This document shows, in pieces, positions 16,085 through 54,665 of a DNA stretch of 64,000 nucleotides (the stretch's first letter is position 1; the number at the start of each line of letters is the position of its first letter). A model generated the notes under the pieces. That model saw only the letters and a program-made list of their open reading frames with translations, made no database searches and was not told the DNA's origin. The stretch lies in contig MWDI01000026.1 of assembly GCA_002070475.1 (NCBI GenBank), forward strand, positions 2,354-66,353. Direction: 5' to 3'. This stretch comes from Firmicutes bacterium ADurb.Bin146 (lineage in GTDB: Bacteria > Bacillota > Clostridia > DUPQ01). The translations under genes were made by a program, and so were the position numbers.

Positions 16085-16630
16085 TTAATGCTTCTTTAAT
16101 ATGTCAGTCTGCTGGTTATCTGGAATAATCCATCCTTTTTTATACAGGATATTCCGTACAGGCCTCAAAACAAAATAAATGATGAGGGTCTCAATTATAA
16201 TTACTGCGGCAGTCTTAATGCTTCTAGCTATAAAAAGCTCGTCGATAGGGATTTTGTATAGTACATATAACGCAATACTCATAAGCAGAAAATCGCTTAC
16301 AAAAGCTTTTGTAAGTACAGTAAATACAGTCCTTCTTGCTGTAATTTCTTTGTTATACAGAAAAAAACCATAAATAAGTCCGTTAGCGACAGCAACTATT
16401 GATATTAAAGGAGAATACGGTCCTGTCGGGAATAGAAAACCACCCAGAATATCTGCAAGAACTGCAGAAAGAGCACCCCATGCTGGCCCAAACAGTATTG
16501 ATCCAAGCGCTATTGATACGAATTCTACCCCTATTCTTACAAACTGCAGGTTAATAGCCAAAAGTTTTGCCAGAATTACCGTTAATGCAGTTAATAAAGA
16601 TAAAATTGCTATTCTCCTTGTGTTATTCAA
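16085..16630 (-). CDS. ECF-transporter S component, folate-family-like
   Basis: 181 aa, 6 TM; RRIAILSLLTALTVILAKLL...RIGVEFVSIALGSILFGPAWGALSAVLADILGGFLF resembles FolT-type S components; 4-nt overlap with the upstream URO-D-like gene. Confidence 0.55.
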   Translation of the reverse strand: MNNTRRIAILSLLTALTVILAKLLAINLQFVRIGVEFVSIALGSILFGPAWGALSAVLADILGGFLFPTGPYSPLISIVAVANGLIYGFFLYNKEITARRTVFTVLTKAFVSDFLLMSIALYVLYKIPIDELFIARSIKTAAVIIIETLIIYFVLRPVRNILYKKGWIIPDNQQTDILKKH

Positions 16631-17625
16631 CGGATAGCCCCTTTTATGCTATACTCTTTAAGAAGAGTAAGATACTTCCAGTAATTTTCCAAAGATACTC
16701 CTGGTGGAGTCTGATGATCTACACTTGGTATATACCCTCCTGATTTCATAGTCGGTAGAAGCCTCTCAAATTCTTCACGCATTGCTTCTTCAGAAACATC
16801 CATAACCATTTTGTCATATGCTCCTATTACAAGGAAATCAGGATAATTCTGTCTTATCCGGTTAACATCCACCCCTGCTTTTCTTTCTAGAGGCAGTGCT
16901 CCTCTAATCCCTGCTCTTTGAAGCCAAGGAATCATGCCTTCAAGCTGTCCGTCAGTATCAACAAGCGGAATAGTACCCAGACTTTCGATGTATGGAACAG
17001 TCTGTTTATAGTAAGGTAGAAGAAACTCATCAAACATATCCTCAGAAAGCATAGGACCAAGATTATATGACATGTCCTCGGCAAAAGTCATAAAATCCGG
17101 ATGTATTGCTTCACTCATCTTCTCAAAAACATATTTAATATAGTGTGTGTTATCTTGGTTCATCCTGTGCATAAGTTCAGGGTTATCATAAAATGCATAA
17201 AGATGGTCCTCTATCCCAAACAGAGTTCTTGGGAACCAGAAGAATCCATCTACAGTTATCCATACTACAAGCTCCCCGTCATCATGCATTTTCTTATATT
17301 TTGCGGCATCTTCAACTGCGGCATCAACCTTGCTCTTATCATAAAGATATGGTTTTAATCTTTCATATGTCTCCATATCAGTTATTTTTCTTTTATCAGC
17401 AGCAAGATTACTGAACTCCCTTGACCTTGATCCGATCCAATACTGTTTAAGCCTGTCTAGACCAAAATATGTATGTTTAATATCTTCTTTGACTGGCAAA
17501 TCAGGAGCTCCTTCGGAAATGAATCTAGCAATGGTCTTGTCCCACCAACCCGCCCATTCAATCATAGGAAGCCTGTCAACCGGTTTAAAATTCATTACAT
17601 TTAGAAATCTTTCTCTTTGGTTCAT
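16627..17625 (-). CDS. Uroporphyrinogen-decarboxylase-family (URO-D fold) protein, paralogue A
   Basis: 332 aa; C-terminal GGYIPSVDHQTPPGVSLENY shared with paralogue B; no haem-pathway neighbours. Confidence 0.65.
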   Translation of the reverse strand: MNQRERFLNVMNFKPVDRLPMIEWAGWWDKTIARFISEGAPDLPVKEDIKHTYFGLDRLKQYWIGSRSREFSNLAADKRKITDMETYERLKPYLYDKSKVDAAVEDAAKYKKMHDDGELVVWITVDGFFWFPRTLFGIEDHLYAFYDNPELMHRMNQDNTHYIKYVFEKMSEAIHPDFMTFAEDMSYNLGPMLSEDMFDEFLLPYYKQTVPYIESLGTIPLVDTDGQLEGMIPWLQRAGIRGALPLERKAGVDVNRIRQNYPDFLVIGAYDKMVMDVSEEAMREEFERLLPTMKSGGYIPSVDHQTPPGVSLENYWKYLTLLKEYSIKGAIR

Positions 17626-17672
17626 ATCTACACCTCGTGGTTATATTATCAGCCTATTAAGTTATAGTCAAT

Positions 17673-19601: not shown

Positions 19602-19602
19602 T

Positions 19603-27667: not shown

Positions 27668-28681
27668 TTATACTTCCTCGGAAAGAAGAGGGAAAAGCTC
27701 ATATGCTCCTTTTAAAATGTCTATTGAAGGTGAAGGTATCCTCCCTAATCCGTCTGGTCCGACATTAATAAGGTAATTTATTCCAAGATCATTAAGCTGC
27801 TTTCTGTATGCAGCTATCTGTTCAGGTCTCTTCCAGTTTTGATCATGATAGGAAAATCCCCATGTGTCATTTAATGTCGCGGCTGTCTCATAAAGTCCGA
27901 ATGGAGATTTTTTAGCTCCTCTTATACTGTCCAGGCTTTCGGGTATCTCATTGTCTCCTAAAGAGACATAATCATATATCCCATTTCCTAGACGTGAGTT
28001 TATCAAGCAATTTGGTTGATATTTTTTTACAAGATCATATAAAGTCTTGCTATGCTGCTCTTTCAATGTCATAGGTACATCAAACCATATAAGACAGAGC
28101 TCTCCGTAATTTCTAAGAATCTCCTCAACCTGAGGTTTGATTTTGTTCTCAAAGCAAATGTCATAATTCTTTATTGACCGGTCAGGAAAATCCCAGCAGT
28201 TGTCCCATGACTTTCCGGCAGAAAGCCTGTCAGTGCTGTATCCTCCCCCATGTTGCTCGTGCCAGTCGATATCCTGTGAATAGTACAATCCGAACTTAAG
28301 CCCATGTTTATATGAAGCTTCTGCAAGCTGTCCTATGATATCCTTTCCGTATGGCGTCATATCACATACATTGTAGCGGTCAGCTTTAGATTTAAACAAT
28401 GCGAATCCGTCATGATGTTTTGATGTAACTACCAAATAATGCATCCCACACTCCTTAGCAAACCGTACCCAACCTTCGGCATCAAAAAATACTGGATTGA
28501 ATGCTGAACACAATTTTTCATATTCCTTGATAGGTATCATATGGTATGACTGTATCCATTCTGCATAGTGGCCGCTTTTCATTCCGTCATACTCTCCGGC
28601 AAGCAAAGAATACAGTCCCCAGTGGACCATCATCCCATATCCTGCTTTTTTAAACCACTCTCTGTTTGACATATTGCTCAT
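27668..28681 (-). CDS. Alpha-L-fucosidase, GH29 (catalytic domain only)
   Basis: 337 aa; GYGMMVHWGLYS, TSKHHDGFALFKS, LIWFD motifs; no signal peptide. Confidence 0.85.
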   Translation of the reverse strand: MSNMSNREWFKKAGYGMMVHWGLYSLLAGEYDGMKSGHYAEWIQSYHMIPIKEYEKLCSAFNPVFFDAEGWVRFAKECGMHYLVVTSKHHDGFALFKSKADRYNVCDMTPYGKDIIGQLAEASYKHGLKFGLYYSQDIDWHEQHGGGYSTDRLSAGKSWDNCWDFPDRSIKNYDICFENKIKPQVEEILRNYGELCLIWFDVPMTLKEQHSKTLYDLVKKYQPNCLINSRLGNGIYDYVSLGDNEIPESLDSIRGAKKSPFGLYETAATLNDTWGFSYHDQNWKRPEQIAAYRKQLNDLGINYLINVGPDGLGRIPSPSIDILKGAYELFPLLSEEV

Positions 28682-40202: not shown

Positions 40203-41369
40203 TTATCGGGTATATTCCCTCAAAAGCTCCCTGAAATAAACGTAGTTCTCAAACGGGACCTCTGCAGGAACACCGTGATCGCAAGTTGGAAGATACCCTC
40301 CATGTTTTTTCATAAAGGGTAAAATCCTGTCTATTTCAATTTTTATAGCTTCCTTGCTATGAGCTAAAATTCTTTTATCTATACCACCTTTTATTCGTAT
40401 ATCGGGATGGTCTTTTCTTATCTGTACAACGTCACAGCCTGATGCTACTTCCATAGGCGACATATAATTCATTCCAATCTCTTTATAAACAGGGATAACA
40501 GGCCTGCAATCACCGTCTGTAGCAACATGGATAATAAGGTCATATCCTTTTGGCTGTTTGTATACTGAATTTTTATCTAACAGAGCAAGCCTGTTGTTTC
40601 TGTTTCTTACTCCTTGTATCAATTCCTTGTAATATGGGAAAAGGAAAGAACGAATCTGAGCGGGTGAGATTAAGGAACCATGGTTATAGCAGATATCCTC
40701 ATCAAAAAGGAGTTCATCTATCCTGACATGATCCTGATATTTTGCAGTAATGTAATCAGAAAGCTCTAACCATTTTTTCATACAAGTGTGTATAAGGGCA
40801 GGTTCATCATAAATCATGTATAGTATTTCCTCCCCCCCTATAAGAGACCTTAGATACATAAAAGCTCCGACTATGTACTGAATAAGATGATATCCCTGTT
40901 TTGCAATAGGTAAAGCTTTTATTATATCCCGCTGTACATCCTCATTTCTCTCAGCGCTATTGTAATCAAGTCTCCACTCGATATCTTTCCATGTCTTTAA
41001 ATCCTTTACAGGGAAATCCAGATACTGTGGCATAAATCCATCTCGTTTTCCTTTGAAGTATTTGACAGTTCTACCTGCTTTATCCTTTGCTATTTCATAT
41101 GTATCATCAGAACCTATAATTTCCTCTTTAAATCTTGGAATAAAGGGTGCAGTAGTGCCTGATAGTCCGGGAAGATAATAGTTAGCCAGTCTCTCAAATT
41201 TGAAAAGTTTATTCAAATCCTCATTTTCCCTGATATGTCCCTGTCTTATCCATTCTTCCTTGCTGTAATATCCAAACTCCTCTAATGCTATCGGAGCATC
41301 TGGTTTAATGGAATAGAAATCTGTTGTCATTTTTTTAAGCTGTTCAAAATCCCTCATCATGCACCTCAT
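40203..41369 (-). CDS. Uroporphyrinogen-decarboxylase-family (URO-D fold) protein, paralogue B
   Basis: 388 aa; C-terminal GGYLPTCDHGVPAEVPFENY parallels paralogue A; start ambiguous among three ATGs (41369/41360/41357). Confidence 0.6.
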   Translation of the reverse strand: MRCMMRDFEQLKKMTTDFYSIKPDAPIALEEFGYYSKEEWIRQGHIRENEDLNKLFKFERLANYYLPGLSGTTAPFIPRFKEEIIGSDDTYEIAKDKAGRTVKYFKGKRDGFMPQYLDFPVKDLKTWKDIEWRLDYNSAERNEDVQRDIIKALPIAKQGYHLIQYIVGAFMYLRSLIGGEEILYMIYDEPALIHTCMKKWLELSDYITAKYQDHVRIDELLFDEDICYNHGSLISPAQIRSFLFPYYKELIQGVRNRNNRLALLDKNSVYKQPKGYDLIIHVATDGDCRPVIPVYKEIGMNYMSPMEVASGCDVVQIRKDHPDIRIKGGIDKRILAHSKEAIKIEIDRILPFMKKHGGYLPTCDHGVPAEVPFENYVYFRELLREYTR

Positions 41370-41487: not shown

Positions 41488-41763
41488 ATGGATAAGCTCA
41501 TATATTTTAAAATACCATCCTGTCCGTTCTGTAGACAGGCAGATAGATTTTTGGAGGAACTCAAACAAGAAAATGAACAGTACCGCGGCATACCTATTCA
41601 GGTTGTGGACGAAACTTGCGAAAGAGCTTTTGCTGATAGTTACAACTACTATTATGTCCCTACTTTTTTTCTTGGTAATAAAAAGCTCCACGAAGGAGTT
41701 GTAACCAAGGACAGGATTAAATATGTTCTTGATGAGTATCTTAACAAGAACAAGGATAAATAA
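41488..41763 (+). CDS. Glutaredoxin/NrdH-like thioredoxin-fold protein
   Basis: 91 aa; YFKIPSCPFCRQA CxxC active site near N-terminus, ...YYYVPTFFLG; GGAGG RBS; stop 1 nt before the next gene's ATG. Confidence 0.7.
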   Translation: MDKLIYFKIPSCPFCRQADRFLEELKQENEQYRGIPIQVVDETCERAFADSYNYYYVPTFFLGNKKLHEGVVTKDRIKYVLDEYLNKNKDK

Positions 41764-41764
41764 T

Positions 41765-43108
41765 ATGACTATATCCATTAATGCACAAAAAGTCATAGGG
41801 GTTATCAAACCCGTCAATAGTATTACAAATGGAACAAACGAACAGCTGGATAAGTATTTAAAAGAGGCAGAAATACCCTATACCCGTCTTCATGACTGTA
41901 TGTATGATCATCAGTTCACAGTTGATATGCCAATGTTGTTTCCGGATTTTGATAAAGATGAACATGACGAAAAAAATTATAGTTTCGCACGAACAGATCT
42001 GTACATATCGAAAATAGTGAAACTTGGCATTAAGATAATATTCCGATTGGGTAACAGCATGGAACACGGACCGATATTCCTTCATCATGATCCTCCTAAG
42101 GACTTTATGAAATGGGCAAGGATAGCATGCCAGATAATACGACATTACAATGAGGGCTGGGCAGATGGTTCCTACTATAACATTGAATACTGGGAAATAT
42201 GGAATGAGCCGGATGCAGGCGCAGGTGGTGACAGAAGAAAAGACGGTCAGTGGACAGGTACAGATGAGCAGTTTTATGAACTGTACAGTAAAGCGTCCGC
42301 ATATATTAAAGGGCAGTTTCCAAAACTTATGATAGGCGGATATGCATCCTGTGCAGTTGATGAACCGACAAGAAGAGTCTTTTTTGAAGGTTTTTTGGAT
42401 TATCTCAAGAAACATGACTACGCTTTTGATTTCTTTTCTTATCACAATTACGGAGACAGCACCGACAAGATAAAAAACAGAATTAAATATATTGTGGACA
42501 CAATGCAAGAAAAAGGATTCACAAATATCCCACTTATATGTACCGAATATTGTTTTTTCTATGAAGGCGGAGGACATTGGAAAAGACTAGGGCAACCTGA
42601 CTGCGAATACTATCAGCAGCAGTTGTATCAGGATATGACAAGCGGTAAAGGTGCAGCATATGTTTTTGCTGCAATGATAACATTCCAAAACAGCCCTGTT
42701 AAAATCGCTACTTTATACCGTACTGATGAAGCAGGTTTATGGAATGCTCCGTTCAATGTATTCTCAGTCCCTCAGAAACCTTATTATGCCCTTATTGCTT
42801 TCAGGGATATAAAAAGGATGAAAGACCAACTGGAAGTGACCCCATCTGAAGAAAATGGGATATACGCCATTGCTGCAGGTAGTAGTGATGAGCTTGTCAT
42901 TGCGATAAGTCAGTACTACGGAATAGATACTGTTTGTGATATTGAAATATCCGGACTTTCAAACAGTAAATATGAAATGGAATACCGCATAACTGATGAC
43001 TGGAGCAATTATGAGGTTATAAAAAAAGAAGTTGGATATTTTAACAAAATCAGCCTTTTTATGAGAAGAGGCTCGATACATGCTGTCAAGTTAAAGAAAA
43101 TATACTGA
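41765..43108 (+). CDS. Clan GH-A glycoside hydrolase, GH39-like
   Basis: Start at MTISINAQ (41765); IEYWEIWNEPD (acid/base NEP) and PLICTEYCF (nucleophile TEY) motifs; no signal peptide. Confidence 0.55.
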   Translation: MTISINAQKVIGVIKPVNSITNGTNEQLDKYLKEAEIPYTRLHDCMYDHQFTVDMPMLFPDFDKDEHDEKNYSFARTDLYISKIVKLGIKIIFRLGNSMEHGPIFLHHDPPKDFMKWARIACQIIRHYNEGWADGSYYNIEYWEIWNEPDAGAGGDRRKDGQWTGTDEQFYELYSKASAYIKGQFPKLMIGGYASCAVDEPTRRVFFEGFLDYLKKHDYAFDFFSYHNYGDSTDKIKNRIKYIVDTMQEKGFTNIPLICTEYCFFYEGGGHWKRLGQPDCEYYQQQLYQDMTSGKGAAYVFAAMITFQNSPVKIATLYRTDEAGLWNAPFNVFSVPQKPYYALIAFRDIKRMKDQLEVTPSEENGIYAIAAGSSDELVIAISQYYGIDTVCDIEISGLSNSKYEMEYRITDDWSNYEVIKKEVGYFNKISLFMRRGSIHAVKLKKIY

Positions 43109-43113: not shown

Positions 43114-44160
43114 CTAACCTTTTCTGTATTCCCTTACTATTTCAATCATATTGATATAGTTCTCTGTAGGCACATAATCCGGCACTGAATTGCCTGTTCC
43201 AAAAGCTATTCCTTTTTCCGCACTGACTTTTGCCAACACATCAGATATGTATTCTTTTAATTGAGGCTTATCCATTCTGCATAACACATCAGCATCTACA
43301 CCACCGAAGTTGCCTATCAAGTCGCCATACTTTTCCACCCATACAGGAAACGGAGCAATCTGGTCCTCATTGGAATGCTTGGCATTAATTTTTGCAACAT
43401 TTATTATCTCATCCATAACATTGAATATATTGCCACAGGAGTGTAAAAGAAATGGAAGATTGTAGCTGTGTGCAAGGCTTACCACATCAGCATAACCCGG
43501 TACTATATACTTTTTTATATCCTCAGCAGACAGCATTGTGTTAGATTTGTATCCTAAATCATCACCCATTCTTGCAACAGCGCACATATCTGAATGGTTA
43601 TCCAAAAAGTTCTTCCATATCTTAACAAAGAGCTTCCTCATATTTTTGAATATATCGCTGTAAAGTTCCGGTTCCTCATAAGACATTATGCAAAGGTCCA
43701 TATATCCTACAAGGTCCTGTATGCATTCGAATATCCCGTAACCCGGACCGCCTATCATCTTCATTCCTGCAGGAAGGGACTGTTTTAATGCCCAAAATGA
43801 TTCGTCCGAACTTTTCAAAAAAAGTGAAGGTATCTCATCCCATGGATAATTGTTGAAATCCTCCCTTGTTGATATCGCAGGAGTAACATGCTTATCCAAA
43901 GCCCCACCATTTGGGAACACCGCCCTTATAGCCACTTCAAAAGATACAGTGTCATATCCCATGATTTTATAGAACTCGCATAACCACTTGAAATATTCCA
44001 GTTTGTCAGTATAATTTCCGTTTATTAGATTAGCAAGTTGCTTATTCAATATTCTTTCCATATGTACAGTACTGATACTGTGCTCGTATAAAGGAAGTCT
44101 TTTTGCTTTCCTGTTGTATGCAGCATCCGTTATGTTCATATAATCTGGTTTAAAGTCCAT
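43114..44160 (-). CDS. Uroporphyrinogen-decarboxylase-family (URO-D fold) protein, paralogue C (HxCG motif)
   Basis: 348 aa; PFLLHSCGNI resembles the His-x-Cys zinc motif of MtaA/MtbA-type methyltransferases; C-terminal VPDYVPTENY. Confidence 0.6.
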   Translation of the reverse strand: MDFKPDYMNITDAAYNRKAKRLPLYEHSISTVHMERILNKQLANLINGNYTDKLEYFKWLCEFYKIMGYDTVSFEVAIRAVFPNGGALDKHVTPAISTREDFNNYPWDEIPSLFLKSSDESFWALKQSLPAGMKMIGGPGYGIFECIQDLVGYMDLCIMSYEEPELYSDIFKNMRKLFVKIWKNFLDNHSDMCAVARMGDDLGYKSNTMLSAEDIKKYIVPGYADVVSLAHSYNLPFLLHSCGNIFNVMDEIINVAKINAKHSNEDQIAPFPVWVEKYGDLIGNFGGVDADVLCRMDKPQLKEYISDVLAKVSAEKGIAFGTGNSVPDYVPTENYINMIEIVREYRKG

Positions 44161-44353: not shown

Positions 44354-45820
44354 ATGAAAGGGCAAATTACAATGCTAAAACTCAACAGAGAAACAATTAC
44401 AGATAAAATCTATGCTTGCTGGCTAGGCAAAAACATCGGGGGAACCATGGGGGTACCATATGAGGGAAAAACTGAAATGAATGACATAAAAGGTTATTCT
44501 ACTCCTAAGGGAGAACCTTATCCCAATGACGACCTCGACTTGCAACTAGTTTGGCTTGCTGCTATGGAATTACATGGACCTTACAAGCTTGATTCCCATG
44601 TTCTGGGTGAACATTGGTTGCGTTGTATTCCTCCCCATTGGAATGAGTACGGAATCTGCAAAGCAAACATGGAATGTGGTATCCTCCCACCTATGTCGGG
44701 TGAATTGAATAACCGATGGAAACATTCGAACGGTGCATGGATACGTTCTGAAATCTGGGCATGTTTAGCACCAGGACATCCTGATATTGCAATTCGATAT
44801 GCTGTTGAAGATGCCATGGTAGATCATGGTATGGGTGAAGGCACTTATGCAGAATTATTCACAGCAGCAATGGAAAGTTCAGCTTTTCTTGTACAGGATA
44901 TACGGGAACTTATTGATATCGGATTATCTAAAATCCCGGTTGAATGCAGGATTGCAAAAAGCGTGCGGCTAGTTTTAAATTCATACGACAATGGTCTTGA
45001 TTGGAAGGAAACAAGACGACTTCTGGTAGAAGACAGTGCTGATTTGGGCTGGTTTCAAGCTCCTGCCAATGTAGGATTTGTAGTATTAGGCCTTTTATAT
45101 GGAAACGGGGATTTTAAACAAAGCATGATACACACCATAAATTGTGGCGACGATACCGATTGTACCGGAGCTACTGTCGGCTCTATTATGGGTATTTTAC
45201 ATGGTACAGCTGGAATTCCAACCGACTGGCGAGAATTCATTGGTGAAAAAATAATTACTATGGCTGTCAATAAAGCTGCATTTATATACGGATGGCCAGG
45301 CTGTCCAAATGATTGCAAAGAACTTACCGAAAGAACAGTTCGACTGATTCCTATTGTATTTGCTGCTAATAATATCGAGATGGAGTTTACCGATTCTGCA
45401 GACCAATATGAAGATAATCAAGTGGAAACTTTGAAAAACAGGGATTATGCTGAAACCCTATATAACCGTAGCGGATATTCATATGATATTGATTTGATGT
45501 ATGCCCGCGCCAGAGTGGAATTTGAAGGATCTTCTGAAATAAGACCCTTAGAAACAAAGAAGTTCAGGATTAAATTCTTTAACAACACGCAACAAAGTCA
45601 GAATATATTATTCCGTTTTATTCTACCGGAGGGTTGGAAACTTGAGGGTAGCCATGCGGTCATGCTAGAATCTAAAGGAGCACAACCAAGCATGTATACC
45701 CAGTGGGAAGCAACTGTAACCGCAGGAGAGCATACAACTCATATAAACCGCGTGATTATAGAAGCAACCAGCAATTCCCATATGATTACCGGGTATATTC
45801 CGATACTATTCATAGGGTGA
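44354..45820 (+). CDS. ADP-ribosylglycohydrolase-family protein with ~150-aa C-terminal extension
   Basis: ACWLGKNIGGTMGVPYEG and NCGDDTDCTGATVGSIMG metal-site motifs; alternative start ATG 44372 has the better RBS. Confidence 0.7.
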   Translation: MKGQITMLKLNRETITDKIYACWLGKNIGGTMGVPYEGKTEMNDIKGYSTPKGEPYPNDDLDLQLVWLAAMELHGPYKLDSHVLGEHWLRCIPPHWNEYGICKANMECGILPPMSGELNNRWKHSNGAWIRSEIWACLAPGHPDIAIRYAVEDAMVDHGMGEGTYAELFTAAMESSAFLVQDIRELIDIGLSKIPVECRIAKSVRLVLNSYDNGLDWKETRRLLVEDSADLGWFQAPANVGFVVLGLLYGNGDFKQSMIHTINCGDDTDCTGATVGSIMGILHGTAGIPTDWREFIGEKIITMAVNKAAFIYGWPGCPNDCKELTERTVRLIPIVFAANNIEMEFTDSADQYEDNQVETLKNRDYAETLYNRSGYSYDIDLMYARARVEFEGSSEIRPLETKKFRIKFFNNTQQSQNILFRFILPEGWKLEGSHAVMLESKGAQPSMYTQWEATVTAGEHTTHINRVIIEATSNSHMITGYIPILFIG

Positions 45821-45888
45821 GATAAACCAGAAGAAGTATACATGATATAATATTAATAAGAAAATATTAATAAATTTTGAGGTACAAT

Positions 45889-47355
45889 ATGGAAACTATG
45901 AAGCTGACAATAAAAACAATGAACAGCAAATACCGTATAAACCCTGAGATATATGGAAGTTTTTCCGAACATCTTGGAAGATGCATATATGACGGTATAT
46001 ATTTAAAGGATAATCATGATGTTCCTAATATTGACGGAATAAGGAATGATATCGTAGAAGCTCTTAAAGCTATAAAGCTTCCTGTACTTCGATGGCCGGG
46101 CGGATGTTTCGCTGACGAATACCACTGGAGAGACGGTATAGGCGAAAAATCCATGAGAAAAAAGATGATAAACACCCACTGGGGCGGATTAACTGAAGAC
46201 AACAGCTTCGGAACTCATGAATTTATGAAACTATGCGAGCTTATAGGGTGCGAACCATATATCGCAGGAAATCTTGGAAGCGGGACTGTTCAGGAAATGT
46301 CAGAATGGATAGAATACATAACTTCGTCTGAACCTTCAACAGTTGTAGAGGAAAGAATTACAAATGGAAGAAAAGAACCTTGGAAGCTTAAATATTTCGG
46401 AGTAGGAAACGAGAACTGGGCATGCGGGGGGAATATGAGGCCTCAGTATTATGCAGACCTGTACCGAAGATATGCAACTTATTGCAGAAATTATGGTCCC
46501 AATAGGCTGTATAAAATAGCATGCGGTCCTAATTCAGATGACTATGATTGGACAGATAAAATAATGGAGATAATCACTAAAGACTGCTCGGCTATATCCT
46601 TGCATCACTATTCGTGGATGACTAGCCAAAGAGCCGCTGAATTATCAGAAGATAACTATTATAGGATTATTGCCAAGTCCAAGAAGATGGATGAACTGAT
46701 TGAAAATCATTGGAATATAATGGGTAAATATGACCCTGACCATAAGATAAAACTGGTTGTTGATGAATGGGGTACATGGTATAAGACAGAAGAAGGTACA
46801 AATCCGAGATTTTTACATCAACAGAGTACGATGACTGATGCTATTGTGGCTGCAAGCACACTTGATATATTCAACAACCGCTGCAATATGGTAAGCATGG
46901 CAAATATTGCACAGACAGTAAATGTCCTCCAGGCAGTTATACTTACTAGCGGAAAACAGCTTATTAAAACACCTACTTATCATGTTTTCGATATATATAA
47001 AGAGCATCAGAATAATATGCTTTTGGACAGCTACTGTAAGAATAGTACGCTAGATAATGATGAGCAGGTTAAAACAATATCGTACTCTGCATCCATGAAC
47101 AGAGACGGTTCCATATATATTACCCTGTCAAATGCAAGCCTTGATAAGGAATATGAAATGGATATTGAACTATACGACAAGAGCGTTGAAACTGTGTCTG
47201 CTGAAATACTGACATCAGACAATTACCTTTCACATAACAGCTTTGATGAACCAGAAAAAATTAAGAAGCAAGAGTATTCTTTGTTCAAATTAAGTAATAA
47301 CGGATTAATTATAAAGCTTTTACCATGCAGTGTTGTTGGAATAAGTTTAAAATAA
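45889..47355 (+). CDS. Alpha-L-arabinofuranosidase, GH51
   Basis: LRWPGGCFADEYHWRDGIG, YFGVGNENWACGG, VDEWGTWY motifs; start at METMKL (GAGG + 7 nt); no signal peptide. Confidence 0.8.
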   Translation: METMKLTIKTMNSKYRINPEIYGSFSEHLGRCIYDGIYLKDNHDVPNIDGIRNDIVEALKAIKLPVLRWPGGCFADEYHWRDGIGEKSMRKKMINTHWGGLTEDNSFGTHEFMKLCELIGCEPYIAGNLGSGTVQEMSEWIEYITSSEPSTVVEERITNGRKEPWKLKYFGVGNENWACGGNMRPQYYADLYRRYATYCRNYGPNRLYKIACGPNSDDYDWTDKIMEIITKDCSAISLHHYSWMTSQRAAELSEDNYYRIIAKSKKMDELIENHWNIMGKYDPDHKIKLVVDEWGTWYKTEEGTNPRFLHQQSTMTDAIVAASTLDIFNNRCNMVSMANIAQTVNVLQAVILTSGKQLIKTPTYHVFDIYKEHQNNMLLDSYCKNSTLDNDEQVKTISYSASMNRDGSIYITLSNASLDKEYEMDIELYDKSVETVSAEILTSDNYLSHNSFDEPEKIKKQEYSLFKLSNNGLIIKLLPCSVVGISLK

Positions 47356-47442: not shown

Positions 47443-48612
47443 ATGAGTAAAGCTGTAATATTCGGAGCAGGTAATATTGGCAGAGGTCTAGTTGGCAGGA
47501 TTCTATTTGAATCTGACTACAATGTCACATTTGTAGATGTAAATGAAAAACTGGTAAAACTGCTTAATACGTCTAAAGCTTATCCCATTTATGTAACCAT
47601 GGGTAACGAATATGACCATAGAATAATCAAGAATGTAAATGCTGTAGATGGAAATGATGTAACTTCGGTAGTTGAAGCTGCTAAGGATGCTTCGATAATA
47701 GCCACAGCAGTCGGCGTAAATGCATTGAAATACATAGTACCAGCAATAAGCGAGATTATAAAGCAAAGATATAGAGATGACAAAGAAGGATACCTAAATT
47801 TCATTCTTTGCGAGAATATGATTGATGTACATTTGTATGTACGGCAGATGCTTAAAGATAAACTTACAGAAAAAGAATATGCTTTTTCGGAAGAGCATAT
47901 CGGTTTCTGCCAGTCATCTATAGGATGTATGGTTCCTGCTCCACCTAAGGAACTTATCGAGCAGAACGCTTTGTCTGTTGCTGTGGAAGACTATAACAAG
48001 ATATACACAGACAAGGAAGGAGTAAGAGGGGAACTGCCGGAAATTACAAATATTATCGCGTATTCACCTTTTTCTTTCTATATCAACCGAAAACTGTATA
48101 TGCACAATATGAGCCATTGCGTATGTGCCTATCTTGGATTCCATAAAGGATATACATATATATGGGAATCTATACTAGACCAGGAAATAAGGAATAAAGT
48201 GGAAAGAGCTCTGGAAGAAACTTCTTCAGCATTATCCTTAAATTACGGTGTGGAAATAAAAAAGCTTAATGAACATGCAGAAGATCTTATAAAAAGATAT
48301 GCTAACAAGCTTCTTTCTGATACAGTCGCTAGAGTTGGAGCTGACCCGAAAAGAAAACTCGGAAAGAATGACCGTCTTATAGGAGCGGCAAGATTTTGTC
48401 TAGATAACAGTATTATGCCCTCAACAATTATAGATACAATACCTCTGGCATTCTCATTTAATGTTGAAAATGATCCTTCATCGCAAGAGGTAAGCTCATT
48501 CTTCAGCGAGCATGGGCTTGCGGAATCTTTAAAAATATACTGCCAGCTTAATGAGACCGAACCTCTATTCGGTAAGATAATTGCTGCAGATAAAAAAAAT
48601 AAAAGAGAGTAA
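47443..48612 (+). CDS. Mannitol-dehydrogenase-family oxidoreductase (mannitol-1-phosphate 5-dehydrogenase-like)
   Basis: 389 aa; MSKAVIFGAGNIGRGLVG Rossmann N-terminus typical of MtlD-type enzymes; no PTS/mtl neighbours. Confidence 0.65.
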   Translation: MSKAVIFGAGNIGRGLVGRILFESDYNVTFVDVNEKLVKLLNTSKAYPIYVTMGNEYDHRIIKNVNAVDGNDVTSVVEAAKDASIIATAVGVNALKYIVPAISEIIKQRYRDDKEGYLNFILCENMIDVHLYVRQMLKDKLTEKEYAFSEEHIGFCQSSIGCMVPAPPKELIEQNALSVAVEDYNKIYTDKEGVRGELPEITNIIAYSPFSFYINRKLYMHNMSHCVCAYLGFHKGYTYIWESILDQEIRNKVERALEETSSALSLNYGVEIKKLNEHAEDLIKRYANKLLSDTVARVGADPKRKLGKNDRLIGAARFCLDNSIMPSTIIDTIPLAFSFNVENDPSSQEVSSFFSEHGLAESLKIYCQLNETEPLFGKIIAADKKNKRE

Positions 48613-48614: not shown

Positions 48615-51572
48615 ATGAACAGACTTCAAAGCCTTTATGATGAGACTGCCGGAAACGGTATAAGCCCTGTCCAGTACATGCCAAAGACACCTTTGACAAG
48701 CAGATTCGTATCTCCATGGGATACATCAGGATGGTATTCGGTTAAATGTAATTTCCAAAAAGGAGCATTACTTTATTCCAACTGTACAGATACAGTTAAA
48801 GATATAGACGAATGCTACGCAGGTGCTGACTACATACAGACATTTAATTCAAAAGCAATCAATCTAATCGATCATCCAGAACTGGACTTCTTTGTTGAAA
48901 CATATGCAGATGTAACAGTTGCAATGGAAGAAAGCTGTAAGCCAGAATGGCTGAAAACCTGGATTAATACAGAAAGAATCATGACTTCCTCAAAAGGCAC
49001 TAAATACTGCTTATATACAAAGGAATTCACAAAAGGCGCGCATGTAAATATACCGGGTTTTGATACTGACCATAACCATTATATAGTCATAATAAAACCG
49101 TTATCAAACAAAGAGAAACTTCACGGGATTGTTAAAATCAATTACCCGAATGCTCAGTTACAGACATATAAGAAGCGTCCATATAAGAGCCATCTTGTAG
49201 AAGTATTCAATAAAAAAAATGACGGCATATTCACAAATGAATATCAGTCATATGGATGCTGCAGCATTCAGACGGATAAAGATGACAAAGAGAATAAATA
49301 CCTTGCACTAGAGACCACAGATAAATGCAATAAGGCATATGTTAAAAAAATCATAGATACGAAACTGGTTTATCCATATATCTTTGAGTGCAAACTTAAT
49401 ATCTCAAAACATTCCGTAGTTAAAGCATTCCTTGTTGACAACAAAGGCAATAACATTGGAGCTCTTTTCAATAATGACGGATATGTCTATAATGCTGAAA
49501 AAGACACAAAGATATGCCCTTTTCAGGAAGATACAGATATTACTTTAAAGTTAAAAGCTGACTCCAAAAAGAAGACATATGAGATATGGATAAATCATAT
49601 CAAACAAGCAGATGCTATACCTTTTAATTTTGATAGTATAAATTATATTCTTTTTTATATAGAAAGCAAAAAAAGCCTTTCCCATGCCTACATAGACAAT
49701 ATATATTTGTATGATGATACTGAAATATATGCAGTTAATGAGAGATTCGAAAAGGATGATTTAAAGAACTGGAGTTCTAACAGCCAGTTAACTATAGAAC
49801 CCTATCCTTTTAATAAGGACAGAAGTTTAGCTTTAACGGGTAAAAAAGAAGCGTCTTATGCAACATATGGATTCAGTCCTATAGATGATACAGTATCTAT
49901 TGAAACAAAGGTAAAAGTAACTGACGAATCCTTCTCTCTATTGCCGCAGCTGGCGGATAAAGACGGAAAAGCCGTATTGAATATCGCTATGTACAAGAAT
50001 AACCTGTATGCCACAGACGGACAGAAGTGGAAGAGGATATATGAAGGACTAACACCATGGATGTATTATCCTTGTAACAACTGGTTTAATATAAAAGTAA
50101 CTGCCGATATAAAAAAATCAACGTATGACCTTTACATAGATGGAGCAAAAAGAGCCCAGGAATTCAATTTCATGAATAAGGTCTCAAATATCGGACAAAT
50201 GGCTTTTTCTTGTGAGAAATCCTCAAAGATATACATAAATCGTATAAGGATTTCTGACTGTGCAGATTTTTCCAGAGGCATGCTTCCTAATGCGAAAATA
50301 TTCGATGTAAAGAAAGCCCCATATAACGCAAAAGGTGATGGTAGGACACTAGATACAGAAAAAATACAAAAAGCTATAGATGATGCAGCATATACAGGAG
50401 GAACCGTATATATCCATGATGGTGTCTTCTTCACTGGCGGACTGATACTAAAATCTGATATGACTTTGTTCATCGACAAATCAGCTACTGTTTTAGGAAC
50501 ACAGGATCACAGTCAGTATAAGCTGGTATCACCAGGCATTTCCCTCTGTGCGATAAGGCAATTAGGAAGAGGGCTTATATATGGCGAGAATGTATCCAAT
50601 GTAAGAATAACAGGCGGAGGCACTTTAGACGGCAATGGCACATACAGATACAAAATGAATGACCCTCTTCAAAACAGAGAAGCTGATGCAAGGCCTGATA
50701 TAGTATATATAACATATTCAAAGGATATAACTATAGAGAATGTGGATATGAAGAGCTCTGCATTCTGGACTGTCGTCCCGCTGTCTTCAGGAAACATAAC
50801 GATAAGAAATCTCAATCTCGACTGTATGAATACCCCAAACCGTGATGGAATTGACCCTGTGGACTGTCATGATATGACTATTTACAACTGTAATATAATG
50901 GCAGGAGACGACGGGCTATGTTTTAAAAGCTCGGACAATGTCGGATGCTATAACATAGATGCTTTTGACCTTATGATACAGAGTCTTGCAAGCGGTATAA
51001 AATTTGGAACTGATACATATTACTGTTTGAAAAATGCCAGGATAAGAGACTGCGCAATTAAGAATGTAAACAGATGCGGTGTATCACTAGAAACAGTAGA
51101 CGGTGCTGCAGTTGAAGATGTCGTATTTGAAAGACTGGATATGACTGATGTAGGAGCTCCTTTGTATATTACAGTCGGTGCAAGAAACAGGCTGCCAAGA
51201 GGTGGTCAACCCATAAGAAGAAGTTATATCAAAAATGTTACTTTTAAAGATATACGTTTTGAACAGCCTTACCCATTTAGTTTTACAAGGGATATTCGCG
51301 AAAATATGGTTATAGGCCAGTCTAAAGACCAGCTTATAGAAAATGTTCATTTCGAAAATTTTGATTTAAAACTGCCAGGCGGAATGAAATCCAAACCAAA
51401 GCCACCGGTTGTAATTAATGACAAGTATCCAGAATACGATCGCCATGGCTTGTCTTCAGGTCATGCGTTTACAATAAAGTATGCAAAGAACATCACCTTT
51501 AAAAATATAAAGGTCACTCTTGAAAAGAAGGATGCAAGAGAAGAGACAGCATATTTTGATTATGAGGACTAG
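48615..51572 (+). CDS. 985-aa protein: ~550-aa N-terminal beta-rich region plus C-terminal GH28-like right-handed beta-helix
   Basis: C-terminal NTPNRDGIDP, AGDDGLCFKS, SGIKFGT motifs match the GH28 NxDG / G(D/H)D / G.xxG pattern; no signal peptide. Confidence 0.65.
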   Translation: MNRLQSLYDETAGNGISPVQYMPKTPLTSRFVSPWDTSGWYSVKCNFQKGALLYSNCTDTVKDIDECYAGADYIQTFNSKAINLIDHPELDFFVETYADVTVAMEESCKPEWLKTWINTERIMTSSKGTKYCLYTKEFTKGAHVNIPGFDTDHNHYIVIIKPLSNKEKLHGIVKINYPNAQLQTYKKRPYKSHLVEVFNKKNDGIFTNEYQSYGCCSIQTDKDDKENKYLALETTDKCNKAYVKKIIDTKLVYPYIFECKLNISKHSVVKAFLVDNKGNNIGALFNNDGYVYNAEKDTKICPFQEDTDITLKLKADSKKKTYEIWINHIKQADAIPFNFDSINYILFYIESKKSLSHAYIDNIYLYDDTEIYAVNERFEKDDLKNWSSNSQLTIEPYPFNKDRSLALTGKKEASYATYGFSPIDDTVSIETKVKVTDESFSLLPQLADKDGKAVLNIAMYKNNLYATDGQKWKRIYEGLTPWMYYPCNNWFNIKVTADIKKSTYDLYIDGAKRAQEFNFMNKVSNIGQMAFSCEKSSKIYINRIRISDCADFSRGMLPNAKIFDVKKAPYNAKGDGRTLDTEKIQKAIDDAAYTGGTVYIHDGVFFTGGLILKSDMTLFIDKSATVLGTQDHSQYKLVSPGISLCAIRQLGRGLIYGENVSNVRITGGGTLDGNGTYRYKMNDPLQNREADARPDIVYITYSKDITIENVDMKSSAFWTVVPLSSGNITIRNLNLDCMNTPNRDGIDPVDCHDMTIYNCNIMAGDDGLCFKSSDNVGCYNIDAFDLMIQSLASGIKFGTDTYYCLKNARIRDCAIKNVNRCGVSLETVDGAAVEDVVFERLDMTDVGAPLYITVGARNRLPRGGQPIRRSYIKNVTFKDIRFEQPYPFSFTRDIRENMVIGQSKDQLIENVHFENFDLKLPGGMKSKPKPPVVINDKYPEYDRHGLSSGHAFTIKYAKNITFKNIKVTLEKKDAREETAYFDYED

Positions 51573-51582: not shown

Positions 51583-51900
51583 TTAAATTATTTCTATACC
51601 AGTTTTTATTATTTCAGAAACTAATCCAGTTTTTTCTTCATAATCTTTCATTGTGAATGGTTGTGGCTGTAAATCGATTTTATACCCTAATGCCTGCATT
51701 AAAAGGAATGTTAATCCATCAACGCGGGACATTTCTTCAAATGCAGGAGAAAATATTGCAATATCGATATCACTATCTTTTTTGAAAGTACCCTTGGAAT
51801 AAGATCCAAACATAATTGCTTTTTCAACAGGAATTTGATTCCTTAACTTATTAATATAGTCACTTGTTATTTCAAGTATATTTTGAGGGATTTTAACCAA
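51583..51900 (-). CDS. Minimal nucleotidyltransferase (MNT-type) protein
   Basis: 105 aa; FGSYSKGTFKKDSDIDIAIF (GS...DxD) motif; no HEPN partner ORF adjacent. Confidence 0.75.
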   Translation of the reverse strand: MVKIPQNILEITSDYINKLRNQIPVEKAIMFGSYSKGTFKKDSDIDIAIFSPAFEEMSRVDGLTFLLMQALGYKIDLQPQPFTMKDYEEKTGLVSEIIKTGIEII

Positions 51901-52069: not shown

Positions 52070-53482
52070 TTATTTATTCAATAACTCAACCTTAATAACA
52101 TCCAAAGAGGATACATGTAATGTGTCCTCTATATTTATCTTTATACAATCATTCTTAAATGAGTAATTCAAATCCTTACCTGTTCTCATAAGATATACTC
52201 TCTTTAGCTTTTTAACACCTTTTAATTCAACAATTTTCTGTGCATCAGGAAGCATAAAGAGATACCTTATATTATCCCTTGCAGTGGCGTAAACATTTGC
52301 TGATTCACCAGTTAAAAGAGGATAGCTCCCAATCACGCTTTCCTTATGTATGCTCATCCAGTCTGCAAGCTCATCAAGCCCTTTGATTGCAGTTTCAGGA
52401 AATTGCCCGTCTGCCATTGGACCTATATTTAGAAGGTAATTCCCTCCCCAGTTCTTTGTTTTTATAAGCTCTGCAATAATATCCGCAGTAGGTCTGTATA
52501 CCGGGTTGTTTGTATATGCCCAAGCTTGCCTTTTACTCCATATTGTACAGTATTCCCACCAGCCCTTTGGTTTCTGCTCAGCAAACTTCACTTCGCAGTT
52601 CCTGAAATCACCATAACCATGCATCCTTATAGTCACTACCACACCCGGCTGCAGTTTATATATCTCTTCCAAAGGATATGCCTCCCCTTTCATCGCACCT
52701 CCGTCAAACCAAAGAATATCTATCTTTCCGTAATTGGTTAAAAGCTCGTGAAGCTGGTTGCGATGCTGTATGCCATGTATCTTTTTCTGTTTTGCCATAT
52801 CTTCTTCTGATGGCATTTCCCTTTCAATGAAGTTTTCATCAACAAATGGAAGGTCTGGATTCTTTTCCTTTACTTTGTAATGCATAAAGGACATATGGTC
52901 TTTATTAAAATGCCAGTCTGTGGGAGTAAAGTAAAAACCTACTTTAAGGTCGTGTTTTCTGCATGCGTCAGCAAATTCCCTAACTAAATCACGTCCGTTT
53001 AAGAAGTCTTTTGTAGAGAAATCCCCGTATTTGCTTGGCCATAACTTAAAGCCATCACAGTGCATGGTAGTCAGGACTGCATACTGGAATCCAGCTTTCT
53101 TAGCCATTTCCATCCACTTGTCAGCATCATAGTTTTTTGCATTGAATTCTTTAGCCAAAGCAAAATATTTAGCCGGTCTCATCTTGAAATTATCGTCTAT
53201 TACTTCCTGTGCTTCCAGTTTTTCAATTTCTTCTATTGATGTACCTTTAGGATAATACTTCCCTCTTGAGAGCATACCCCATGATACATCCATTCTGCCG
53301 TCAACAGAGGATATGCACCAGTGGAGAAACATTCCTAATCCTGCGTTTTTAAACCACTGGGCATCAGGATGATCTGAACCTAAGTCATCCAGTATTTCAG
53401 GATGTATGAGCTTCAATGAATTATGCTGGCCTTCGACATCCAGTTCCATTTCGGTACCGAACCATTCTTTTTTATTAATCAT
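52070..53482 (-). CDS. Alpha-L-fucosidase, GH29
   Basis: 470 aa; GLGMFLHWCISS, TTMHCDGFKLWPSK, ILWFDG motifs; AGGAGG RBS; no signal peptide. Confidence 0.82.
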   Translation of the reverse strand: MINKKEWFGTEMELDVEGQHNSLKLIHPEILDDLGSDHPDAQWFKNAGLGMFLHWCISSVDGRMDVSWGMLSRGKYYPKGTSIEEIEKLEAQEVIDDNFKMRPAKYFALAKEFNAKNYDADKWMEMAKKAGFQYAVLTTMHCDGFKLWPSKYGDFSTKDFLNGRDLVREFADACRKHDLKVGFYFTPTDWHFNKDHMSFMHYKVKEKNPDLPFVDENFIEREMPSEEDMAKQKKIHGIQHRNQLHELLTNYGKIDILWFDGGAMKGEAYPLEEIYKLQPGVVVTIRMHGYGDFRNCEVKFAEQKPKGWWEYCTIWSKRQAWAYTNNPVYRPTADIIAELIKTKNWGGNYLLNIGPMADGQFPETAIKGLDELADWMSIHKESVIGSYPLLTGESANVYATARDNIRYLFMLPDAQKIVELKGVKKLKRVYLMRTGKDLNYSFKNDCIKINIEDTLHVSSLDVIKVELLNK

Positions 53483-53531
53483 CTGACACCTCCTGATTGA
53501 TTTGTATTATGAATGTACAATATGTACATAC

Positions 53532-54665
53532 TTAAAATCTATTATATTTATGATTCCTGTAATACTCAAAACCTTCCAGCGCCGCTTTTATATTTTCATA
53601 AGGTACTCCTGGTGTGCATGAACTGGAAAAGGAAAGGAATAATCCGGTCTTCGGCCCATTCTCCACCAAAAACTTAATCTGCTTGGCAACATCCGTAGAT
53701 GTGCCTAATGGCAGTTCCCTTGTTACTGAAACTCCTGCTTGTATAACCATGCTTTTATTGTCTTTCGCACGTAATCTGCATATCTTCACATAATCCATTC
53801 CGTCTTCGTACTGGAACCCCTGGAATCCGTTTACTCCCGCTTCCAAAAGATATGGAATTATTTCCATAAGATTTCCGTCACAGTGCCATAATAGGGTGAA
53901 ATCAGCTTTAACCGCCGGTGATATGGATTCTACGAATGCCGGATACCAGGCACGCTTTAAAGTATGCCAGTCCACTAAAAGACCTCTTGAGCTTGCCATA
54001 TCGTGATCTAGTCTGTGATATTTCGGCAGTCCTGCTTTTATAAACGCATCCACTACCGCCTGATTATTCTTTTTGGCATAAACTCCTTGAAGAGTGAAAT
54101 ATTTATCTATAACTTCAGGATACAAGGCATAAGCCATGAAATAGTTCTCATAACCATATGCGGCATATGACAGTATCGGGAATATTATATTTCCATAACC
54201 TGTCTTTAATATATCATCACCTAACAGCTGTTGCGTCCTGGATTCTGTATTTATTACTGCCTGGGCGCAGGATTGGGCATTAAAATCCTTAATGGATTTT
54301 TCAAGCATAGGAATTTTAAATCTCTCTATATGTTCAATAACGGCTTCAGGAGAGTCAATTACCATTCCATCCAGAATTATGCCTGAATCATTTGATATAT
54401 TCTCATGTCCTTTATTGCCTATACGAAGAGGATTCTCTGCAAGATACTGGTCTACCATGCATACGCCTGCATTTTGCAGCATCTTCACATATATGCCGTG
54501 AGGGTCTTTTTTATAATCGCCAGGTGACGCTTTCGCAATACGCTCAATAATGGAATGCTCCATTATATGCAGAAGCCCGGTAGGTATACCGGACGTTTCT
54601 CTTCTGTTTATACAGTCATATGCCATTTTAGCATTGTTACCGAAATTTCTCATATACCCGCCCAT
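53532..54665 (-). CDS. Uroporphyrinogen-decarboxylase-family (URO-D fold) protein, paralogue D
   Basis: 377 aa; LLWHCDGNLMEIIPYL (His-Cys motif), C-terminal SSSCTPGVPYENI; start 54665 or 54653. Confidence 0.55.
   Translation of the reverse strand: MGGYMRNFGNNAKMAYDCINRRETSGIPTGLLHIMEHSIIERIAKASPGDYKKDPHGIYVKMLQNAGVCMVDQYLAENPLRIGNKGHENISNDSGIILDGMVIDSPEAVIEHIERFKIPMLEKSIKDFNAQSCAQAVINTESRTQQLLGDDILKTGYGNIIFPILSYAAYGYENYFMAYALYPEVIDKYFTLQGVYAKKNNQAVVDAFIKAGLPKYHRLDHDMASSRGLLVDWHTLKRAWYPAFVESISPAVKADFTLLWHCDGNLMEIIPYLLEAGVNGFQGFQYEDGMDYVKICRLRAKDNKSMVIQAGVSVTRELPLGTSTDVAKQIKFLVENGPKTGLFLSFSSSCTPGVPYENIKAALEGFEYYRNHKYNRF

Follow-up and report, generated by a model that had tools for sequence, protein, structure and literature searches.

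OdmB, VdmB, MtvB, MtoB, CmuA and CdmB belong to a clade of methyltransferases I (MTIs) with the uroporphyrinogen decarboxylase (UroD) fold, many members of which are of unknown substrate (PMC13222342). They work together with a corrinoid protein, a methyltransferase II (MTII) and an activase, UroD-fold MTIs do not always need zinc, and the substrates of all the characterised bacterial ones are aryl methyl ethers or methyl halides (PMC13222342). Four open reading frames (ORFs) of the same superfamily, designated A to D, are present in a stretch of 64,000 nucleotides, here called the window, of the uncultured Firmicutes bacterium ADurb.Bin146 (Bacillota, Clostridia; GenBank assembly GCA_002070475.1, contig MWDI01000026.1, positions 2,354 to 66,353), where they are embedded among glycoside hydrolase (GH) and other carbohydrate-catabolic genes. 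This is a real and not an artefactual feature: UroD-superfamily methyltransferases are of a known kind, and their glycosidase setting is unreported. With a probability of about 0.45, A to D would be O-type corrinoid-dependent methyltransferases recruited to glycan catabolism, with their partners encoded elsewhere.

A to D share with OdmB, VdmB, MtvB, MtoB and CdmB the TIM-barrel fold, and UROD is the solved structure that comes nearest. The O-demethylase and dehalogenase MTIs also have a metal site that is optional or carboxylate-liganded, and their substrates carry methyl groups bound to O or halogen. They depend on a separate corrinoid protein as well as on an ATP-dependent activase, and an orthologue of A is found in such an operon (locus L069, below; L numbers denote the loci compared). 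On the other hand, the similarity of A to D to these enzymes is marginal, the Asp/Asp/His set of A and B is undescribed, and the window genes occur one by one among glycosidases, with no corrinoid protein, MTII or activase beside them. There is also a difference in the presumed substrates, which are aliphatic sugar ethers for A to D and aryl ethers for the MTIs.

The methylcobamide:coenzyme M methyltransferases MtaA, MtbA and MtsA have the same fold, and C keeps their His-x-Cys motif and the following Glu. However, none of A to D has the complete His-Cys-Cys set, the third residue being Asn in C, and their scores against the corresponding NCBIfam models are far below the cut-offs. In methanogens, mtaA and mtbA can be unlinked from the gene of the corrinoid partner; coenzyme M is, to our knowledge, not expected in Clostridia. 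The mlp clusters, which are widespread in anaerobic Firmicutes, encode several MtaA-like paralogues together with a corrinoid protein and a RACE activase and contain no folate methyltransferase (Kountz and Balskus, bioRxiv 2023; PMC10418091). Mlps are about 30% identical to MtaA/MtbA, retain His-Cys-Cys and are linked to sulfur and selenium genes; this ligand set characterises S/Se-methyltransferases, whereas in O-methyltransferases Cys is replaced by Asp, Glu or non-ligands (PMC10418091). The architecture of L069 resembles that of the mlp clusters, and an MtaA-like protein of the mlp kind lies beside a B-like gene in L025, whereas A to D are far more distant from MtaA/MtbA, their ligand sets are of the O type and their links are to carbohydrate genes. 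None of the components of a type 1 mlp cluster (Mlp2 and Mlp3, the corrinoid protein and the RACE activase) is present in the window.

Glycosidases and the catabolic steps after them are blocked by methyl ethers on sugars, such as those of 2-O-methyl-fucose and 2-O-methyl-xylose (rhamnogalacturonan II), 4-O-methyl-glucuronate (xylan), and methylated galactose and rhamnose (algal and bacterial glycans). In marine bacteria, cytochrome P450 carbohydrate demethylases act on 6-O-methyl-D-galactose in an oxygen-dependent manner (PMC6292453). Such oxygen-dependent P450s were the only carbohydrate demethylases found in literature searches (PMC6292453), and the route in anaerobes of guts, digesters and sediments was not addressed there. 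The P450s deal with the same problem and are also encoded in glycan-utilisation loci, but they are monooxygenases of unrelated fold and mechanism, whereas A to D of strict anaerobes would move the methyl group and not oxidise it. Cobalamin-independent methionine synthase (MetE) is a further relative at the level of the superfold (template modelling score, TM, about 0.48 with the D model), and a Glu follows the ligand strand in A, B and C as in MetE. In MetE the methyl donor is a folate and no corrinoid takes part, so that the pairing of A with a folate-transporter gene is suggestive, although the His-Cys-Glu-Cys zinc site of MetE is not kept and A to D are single barrels of 332–388 aa, in contrast to its double barrel.

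Fold and family membership

All four ORFs are present exactly where the initial annotation placed them, intact, on the minus strand and with ATG starts: A, the prototype of its family, at 16627..17625 (332 aa), its paralogue B at 40203..41369 (388 aa), C at 43114..44160 (348 aa) and the divergent URO-D/MetE-fold protein D at 53532..54665 (377 aa). Pfam annotation, which covered essentially every ORF of the window, gives A, B and C 48.5, 53.5 and 52.1 bits with URO-D (PF01208, cut-off 23.9 bits). D is below the cut-off with 15.7 bits, and thus its place in the superfamily, which had also been claimed, is based on profile–profile comparison with the A family (hhalign probability 95.9%) and on its predicted structure. 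The AlphaFold (AF2) model of D has a mean confidence (pLDDT) of 90.9, and its best PDB matches by Foldseek are UROD and MtaA (E about 1e-8, TM 0.53–0.63), followed by MetE. For the A model (pLDDT 92.7), the top matches are UROD (TM 0.70) and MtaA (TM 0.67), with GH53 (TM 0.51) and psicose epimerases (TM about 0.4) further down the list; the identity of UROD structures to the A and D models is 8–16%. The fold of B and C is assigned by Pfam and hhalign. Acidic and aromatic residues abound at the mouth of the barrel. A novel glycoside hydrolase was considered from this feature and from the GH53 and GH5 matches of Foldseek at TM about 0.5, but the idea was dropped, since UROD and MtaA match far better and corrinoid operons exist.

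The four proteins had been described as four paralogues. A and B are indeed related (33% identity over 220 residues, E 5e-38), but A and C, and likewise C and D, are only borderline detectable to each other by BLASTP, and comparison of the family profiles by hhalign gives 95.8% for A–C and just 20% for C–D. From these comparisons, only A and B are evident paralogues, while C and D each represent a separate deep family, so that A+B, C and D make up three deep, widespread and uncharacterised subfamilies. The families are large, with 6359 homologue clusters for A, 3539 for C, 1966 for D and 2106 for B (50% identity, E up to 1e-3); together with the distant relationships, this points to co-location of old, distinct subfamilies and not to a recent local amplification. 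Where homologues are named in databases, they are called 'uroporphyrinogen decarboxylase family protein' or 'hypothetical'. They come mostly from metagenome-assembled genomes of Clostridia, and also from Fibrobacteres, Kiritimatiellaeota and Treponema; cultured carriers are Paludicola sp. MB14-C6, Vallitalea guaymasensis, Vallitalea longa and Caldanaerobius fijiensis. A to D are full-length relative to their homologues and retain every family-invariant residue, so that they are not pseudogenes; they belong to the UroD/MtaA/MetE TIM-barrel superfamily and are most likely functional cytoplasmic enzymes.

Metal-ligand columns

The ligand columns were fixed via an MtaA-like protein (L025:937-1890) aligned to M. 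mazei MtaA (PDB 4ay7, E 4.5e-17), in which HNCG corresponds to HICG and SSGCD to PGCG of MtaA, and were then transferred through a 37-sequence superfamily alignment and profile alignments. The three positions, which are His, Cys and Cys in MtaA, are occupied by Asp223, Asp225 and His304 in A, by Ala283, Asp285 and His365 in B, by His240, Cys242 and Asn324 in C, and by His261, Asp263 and Ser348 in D. One strand beyond there is a Glu in A (Glu247), B (Glu307) and C (Glu265), whereas D has Gln285 in this column and Glu287 two residues on. The overall sites are thus Asp223/Asp225/Glu247/Asp303-His304 in A and Ala283/Asp285/Glu307/Asp364-His365 in B. Additional Cys residues are the invariant Cys294 of C and the near-invariant Cys262 and Cys296 of D. 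Conservation in the ligand columns is 100% across 120 homologues of A and 121 of C, and the column residues of D are invariant, too (120–121 homologues). Among 125 representatives of the B superfamily (pairwise identity at most 50%), the Asp-x-Asp...Glu...Asp-His pattern is retained in 119–124. The Ala283 of B, which is also present in its closest relatives, may mean that B is catalytically altered, or that it is a partner subunit of C.

The zinc sphere of the MtaA type, consisting of His-x-Cys and a C-terminal Cys, is absent in all four proteins, and their ligand columns agree with the pattern of O-type enzymes, in which Cys ligands are replaced by carboxylates or non-ligands, or of enzymes without zinc. 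The motifs quoted in the initial annotation, LHSCGNI (C), WHCDGN (D), VDTDGQ (A) and ATDGD (B), as well as the C-terminal GGY[IL]P..DH..P..ENY of A and B, occur verbatim in the translations. The split into two classes that had been drawn from them is real, but it is too coarse, as there are four ligand patterns. The grouping of D with the His-x-Cys proteins has to be given up: its motif is His261-Cys262-Asp263, with Cys at the 'x' and Asp at the position of the MtaA Cys.

A 457-aa URO-D-family protein of Paludicola sp. MB14-C6 is followed by a metal-chaperone GTPase of the CobW/COG0523 type (L126, 4205-6574), which suggests assisted metal loading of at least some superfamily members.

Corrinoid proteins and activases beside orthologous genes

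In L069, an A-like gene, a B-like paralogue, a corrinoid protein gene, a gene for a Cys-rich protein of 192 aa and a RACE-type activase gene (PDB 3zyy, E 2.4e-65) form a tight series on the same strand. The A-like protein is 56% identical to A of the window with all the invariant motifs present, and the B-like protein, which reads SLDCDG ... CPDH, matches B over its full length (E 2e-16). There is no recognisable pterin-type MTII in L069, and from the gene content its A- and B-class proteins are the only candidate methyltransferases for the co-transcribed corrinoid carrier. In L082, an orthologous pair (72% identity for A, 77% for the B-like protein) directly abuts a downstream GH95 fucosidase/galactosidase gene (PDB 2rdy, E 1e-180), with no corrinoid protein or activase within 6 kb. 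The same pair of enzymes is thus tied to the corrinoid machinery in the genome of L069 and to a fucosidase in that of L082.

The C family has a link of its own. P0234 shares 54% identity with C, and 78 bp behind its gene, in three contigs (L123-L125), a protein of 210 aa with B12-binding_2 and B12-binding domains is encoded. In L025, genes for a Cys-rich protein, the MtaA-like protein used above as an anchor and a corrinoid protein are found 1 kb upstream of a B-like gene. Weaker cases are L110, where a homologue of the Cys-rich protein adjoins an A-like gene, and L090, where a RACE homologue is near an A-like gene; in the latter, the adjacency is weakened by a transposase-like gene in between. 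Two candidates were discarded. The 484-aa ORF beside the A-like gene of L090 is a spurious frame in high-GC DNA, where the real gene looks like a transposase, and the 206-aa protein after a C-like gene of Paludicola, at the place expected for a corrinoid protein, is an unrelated Cys/Pro-rich protein.

It had been stated that these genes have no corrinoid partners. This is true of the window and untrue of the families, as L069, P0234 and L025 show, and their absence from the window is therefore no evidence for corrinoid-free chemistry.

The Cys-rich protein of about 190 aa (L069, 8870-9448; L025, 260-841; L110, 2044-2607) occurs with corrinoid proteins and A-like or MtaA-like genes in three unrelated contigs and may have an accessory role in these methyltransferase systems.

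Gene context in the window and in relatives

The end of A overlaps by 4 nt with a gene for a FolT-like (folate-family) S component of an energy-coupling factor (ECF) transporter (16085..16630, minus strand; Pfam ECF_trnsprt, ECF-ribofla_trS). The PDB relatives of this protein are folate ECF S components (4z7f, E 6e-18; 4huq_S; 5d3m), while RibU is found only at E 0.14. Its gene is followed on the same strand, 13 bp downstream, by that of a xylose-isomerase-like TIM barrel of the sugar isomerase/epimerase type (15250..16071; AP_endonuc_2, E 7e-29), by a major facilitator superfamily (MFS) transporter gene that is probably a member of the A operon (13910..15115; MFS_1, Sugar_tr) and, 16 bp downstream of the latter, by a PfkB-family carbohydrate kinase gene (12955..13893; PfkB, E 7e-44). 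The pairing of A with a FolT-like gene is retained in L024, L036 and L037. A promoter and terminator scan of the A operon was uninformative, as the sites were no more numerous than in shuffled sequence.

A gene for a GGDEF-EAL protein with an SBP_bac_3-like sensor domain (17673-19643, minus strand) ends 47 bp upstream of A, a position kept in L036. A may be co-transcribed with this cyclic-di-GMP signalling gene.

The location beside glycosidases that had been noted for the URO-D genes applies to B, C and D, but the neighbours of A are those just described. Between B and C, a GH39-like glycosidase gene (41723..43108, plus strand; Glyco_hydro_39, 57 bits) is convergent with C. Divergent from C, on the plus strand, are genes for an ADP-ribosylglycohydrolase-family protein (44354..45820; ADP_ribosyl_GH, E 1.5e-40), a GH51 α-L-arabinofuranosidase (45877..47355; Alpha-L-AF_C, E 3e-43), a mannitol-dehydrogenase-family oxidoreductase (47443..48612; Mannitol_dh, Mannitol_dh_C), which we take to belong to a family of hexuronate-pathway reductases, and a GH28 pectin-type glycosidase with a sialidase-like carbohydrate-binding module (48615..51572; Glyco_hydro_28, Sialidase-like_CBM). 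D forms an operon with a GH29 α-L-fucosidase gene 49 bp downstream on the same strand (52070..53482, minus; Alpha_L_fucos, E 5e-62), and another GH29 gene is divergent from it (55092..56384, plus; E 1e-96); the first of the three GH29 genes of the window is at 27668..28681 (minus; E 6e-60). None of the glycosidases of the window nor A to D has an N-terminal hydrophobic segment or signal peptide, while the neighbouring S-layer protein has one, so that both the glycosidases and A to D would work in the cytoplasm on imported oligosaccharides.

Close relatives retain the order GH51 – C – (GH39-like) – B – glycerol-3-phosphate-dehydrogenase-like genes. In L021 and L022, B directly follows C on the same strand, 10 bp apart, with no GH39-like gene between them. 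This suggests that C and B are an ancestral pair, and that the GH39-like gene and the giant S-layer gene mentioned below are insertions. GH29 adjoins B in L023 and also two A-like genes. In more distant loci, A-like genes overlap a GH36-like gene (L044, L048) or a GH143-like propeller gene (L102), have divergent AraC regulators in some loci and also occur with GFO_IDH, AP_endonuc_2 and ThuA genes. In L072, an A-like gene is flanked by genes for a sugar-binding protein and for a GH78 rhamnosidase, after which come a sulfatase gene and another paralogue. B-like genes adjoin AraC and GH26, AraC alone, GH4, or housekeeping genes. A C-like gene is found behind an AraC regulator in one context and, in another, in an amino-sugar-type operon with NagB-like, NagA-like, AP_endonuc_2, GFO_IDH and DHDPS genes and a second paralogue. 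In three lineages, a D-like gene is part of an operon comprising DeoR, GFO_IDH/GH109-like, D, AraA-like isomerase, aminotransferase, FGGY kinase, Amidohydro_2 and GFO_IDH genes, and in a fourth it adjoins a GFO_IDH gene. The association with carbohydrate genes is thus general, no single glycosidase family being the partner, and the embedding in cytoplasmic carbohydrate-catabolic genes that had been pointed out for this DNA extends to many unrelated lineages.

The sugar-catabolic operon of the D-family loci L116-L119 and L017, in which the aminotransferase is of class III, also contains an ABC transporter; it is found in several lineages of anaerobes and is apparently undescribed. The trio at 30742-33876 (minus strand), encoding DAO with a BFD-like [2Fe-2S] domain, Pyr_redox_2 and DUF1667, is an anaerobic glycerol-3-phosphate-dehydrogenase-like set, which adjoins B in relatives and a D-like gene in L120-L122. 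Between it and B there is a gene for a giant S-layer-homology protein (34069-40020, minus strand; 1983 aa with about nine Big_12 repeats). This protein is 1791-1956 aa long, or split in two, in near-identical contigs, and the gene is absent at the corresponding position in L020-L024, which indicates a variable insertion.

Proposed corrinoid-dependent sugar demethylation and its alternatives

The O-type ligand sets together with the glycosidase partners point to methyl ethers of sugars. Fucose-type sugars are prominent in view of GH29, found three times in the window, beside B in L023 and beside two A-like genes, and of GH95 in L082. In the scheme favoured here, A to D would use a corrinoid (B12) carrier encoded elsewhere in the genome, as do the unlinked mtaA and mtbA of methanogens. 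Their sites, in which Asp, His or non-ligands take the place of the soft Cys ligands found in the thiol-methylating MtaA type, would suit oxygen-bound methyl groups. Sugars released from imported oligosaccharides would lose their O-methyl groups, with methyl-fucose-type residues as prime suspects, and the corrinoid protein would carry these groups on to tetrahydrofolate. Proteins of the A and B types repeatedly occur side by side and may each catalyse one of the half-reactions; A may be the folate-linked half, a hint being that it is co-transcribed with the gene of a folate-uptake component. Methylated sugars as the substrates are suggested by gene context and are put forward tentatively, the odds being rather against this detail. 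The full version, an anaerobic corrinoid-dependent O-demethylation of carbohydrates at undescribed Asp/Asp/His (A/B) or His/Asp (D) sites, with A/B pairs sharing a corrinoid protein, tetrahydrofolate as the methyl acceptor and one member of the pair as a new folate methyltransferase, is likewise more doubtful than the general assignment to methyl transfer. D fits the scheme least, and for this protein a corrinoid-independent function is at least as likely.

The removal of methyl ethers from sugars was one of two activities proposed in the initial annotation. As for methyl transfer, the proposal has been strengthened by the corrinoid/RACE operons, the GH95 of L082, the FolT overlap and the ligand rule, while the methylated-sugar substrate is no firmer than it was. 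For the other activity, decarboxylation of uronates, nothing specific was found.

If corrinoid-dependent sugar demethylation is true, it links polysaccharide breakdown to one-carbon metabolism via families of thousands of sequences, extends the corrinoid methyltransferases by a new ligand chemistry and gives reason to drop the annotation 'uroporphyrinogen decarboxylase'; the cultured carriers make the question of anaerobic sugar demethylation directly testable.

Several observations weigh against this assignment. The missing methyl-transfer partners are one of them: Pfam and local probe searches found no B12-binding proteins, RACE activase or pterin-type methyltransferase in the whole window, and no hem genes either, so that the statement that hem and corrinoid genes are not nearby holds for all 64 kb. 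Of the 80 A-family loci in metagenome contigs, which together provide 405 kb of flanking sequence, 48 extend for 2 kb or more beyond the gene on at least one side, and only 3 of these contain a corrinoid- or activase-type gene; most related loci have none, and by gene density alone the enrichment of corrinoid genes near the A family is modest. A Pfam census of the A-family flanks in these contigs, in which 117 genes spread over 122 families and URO-D paralogues and AraC lead with 5 each, rules out a single conserved partner. In the D family, six lineages show no corrinoid link and a sugar operon instead. At ligand position 1, the B superfamily has Asp in 119 of 125 representatives and Ala in 2, and B of the window is of the Ala type. 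Resemblance to known enzymes is marginal: the best scores with the NCBIfam MtaA/MtbA/CmuA models (TIGR01463, NF041608, NF040654) are 17-27 bits against cut-offs of 235-600, C having weak matches to the MtbA and MtaA models, and when the PDB was searched with profiles of the A, C and D families, the only matches were UROD (E 0.018) and the chloromethane methyltransferase CdmB (E 0.58), while single-sequence searches with A and C gave nothing useful. Aliphatic sugar methyl ethers are, moreover, poorer methyl donors than aryl ethers, and full-text literature searches yielded no paper linking the URO-D fold to glycan loci or to anaerobic sugar demethylation.

These points leave room for alternatives. 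A to D might be corrinoid-independent, metal-dependent sugar enzymes, in which an Asp/Glu/His site for a divalent metal serves as a Lewis acid in a decarboxylase, isomerase/epimerase, hydratase or hydrolase reaction, and the corrinoid neighbours would then reflect only some members of the subfamilies. This possibility, which is ranked below corrinoid-dependent methyl transfer, would account for the majority of loci without a corrinoid partner, for the D operon with AraA-like isomerase, FGGY kinase, Amidohydro_2 and two GFO_IDH genes in three lineages and the GFO_IDH neighbour in the fourth, for the recurrence of AP_endonuc_2, GFO_IDH and ThuA near A-, B- and C-type genes, and for the acidic and aromatic barrel mouth, and it agrees with the generic TIM-barrel sugar enzymes (GH53, psicose epimerases) lower in the Foldseek list. 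However, it leaves the pairing with FolT unexplained, the A/B-class proteins of L069 are the sole candidate catalytic partners of a corrinoid protein and an activase, and a corrinoid protein accompanies an orthologue of C. UROD itself works without a metal and binds its polyanionic substrate via basic residues, and we know of no superfamily member with such sugar chemistry. Alternatively, the proteins may be corrinoid-dependent methyltransferases with non-sugar donors or acceptors, such as methoxylated aromatic aglycones released from plant glycosides, methyl-S/Se or other small methyl compounds, the glycosidases being only loosely related. GH78 rhamnosidases, which adjoin A-like genes, also cleave flavonoid rutinosides, C has a softer sphere with His-x-Cys and the invariant Cys294, and several homologues are in housekeeping contexts. 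Precedents exist in the aryl methyl ethers and methyl halides used by the characterised bacterial UroD-fold MTIs (PMC13222342) and in the methyl-S/Se compounds on which Mlp clusters act (PMC10418091). Non-sugar substrates are nevertheless unlikely, as the coupling to several glycosidase families, sugar-binding proteins, kinases and isomerases is tight, often overlapping, and seen in unrelated lineages, D forms an operon with GH29 in the window itself, and the similarity to MTIs of aromatic O-demethylases is very low.

The Pfam family name and the top Foldseek matches to UROD would fit one of A to D being the HemE of this genome, for haem or sirohaem-type tetrapyrroles, and the others being decaying copies; HemE has the same fold, and the conserved His of the C-terminal GHG motif of UROD aligns with His304 of A. 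This explanation is effectively refuted. With the hemE equivalog model of NCBIfam (TIGR01464, cut-off 302.95 bits), A and B score 17.6 and 17.1 bits and C and D give no match, the identity to UROD structures is as low as described above, the mouth of the barrel is acidic in A to D and basic in HemE, and there is no tetrapyrrole context in the window. The reading of the other copies as pseudogenes was rejected together with it, as all four are full-length, keep the family-invariant residues and belong to families with thousands of homologues.

Other features of the window

A search with Rfam found no cobalamin or tetrahydrofolate riboswitch or any other family, either at the gathering score in the window and six loci or at E up to 1 in the 40-56 kb part of the window. 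A ribosomal-protein operon is located at 79-8889 (Pfam). The cluster at 24779-27586 (minus strand), encoding CotH kinase-like, DUF4956/MgtC-like and VTC-domain proteins, is conserved in L021; it is apparently unrelated to the URO-D genes and may be a polyphosphate-related module. Between the GH28 gene and the GH29 gene downstream of D, there is a lone gene for a small nucleotidyltransferase (51583-51900, minus strand; NTP_transf_2/Polbeta, 105 aa), which may be half of a toxin-antitoxin pair. A type IV toxin-antitoxin pair, AbiEi/AbiEii, is encoded at 60922-62351 (plus strand), with genes for a WYL-domain regulator (59687-60520) and a DUF3788/DUF3795 protein (58929-59657) nearby.

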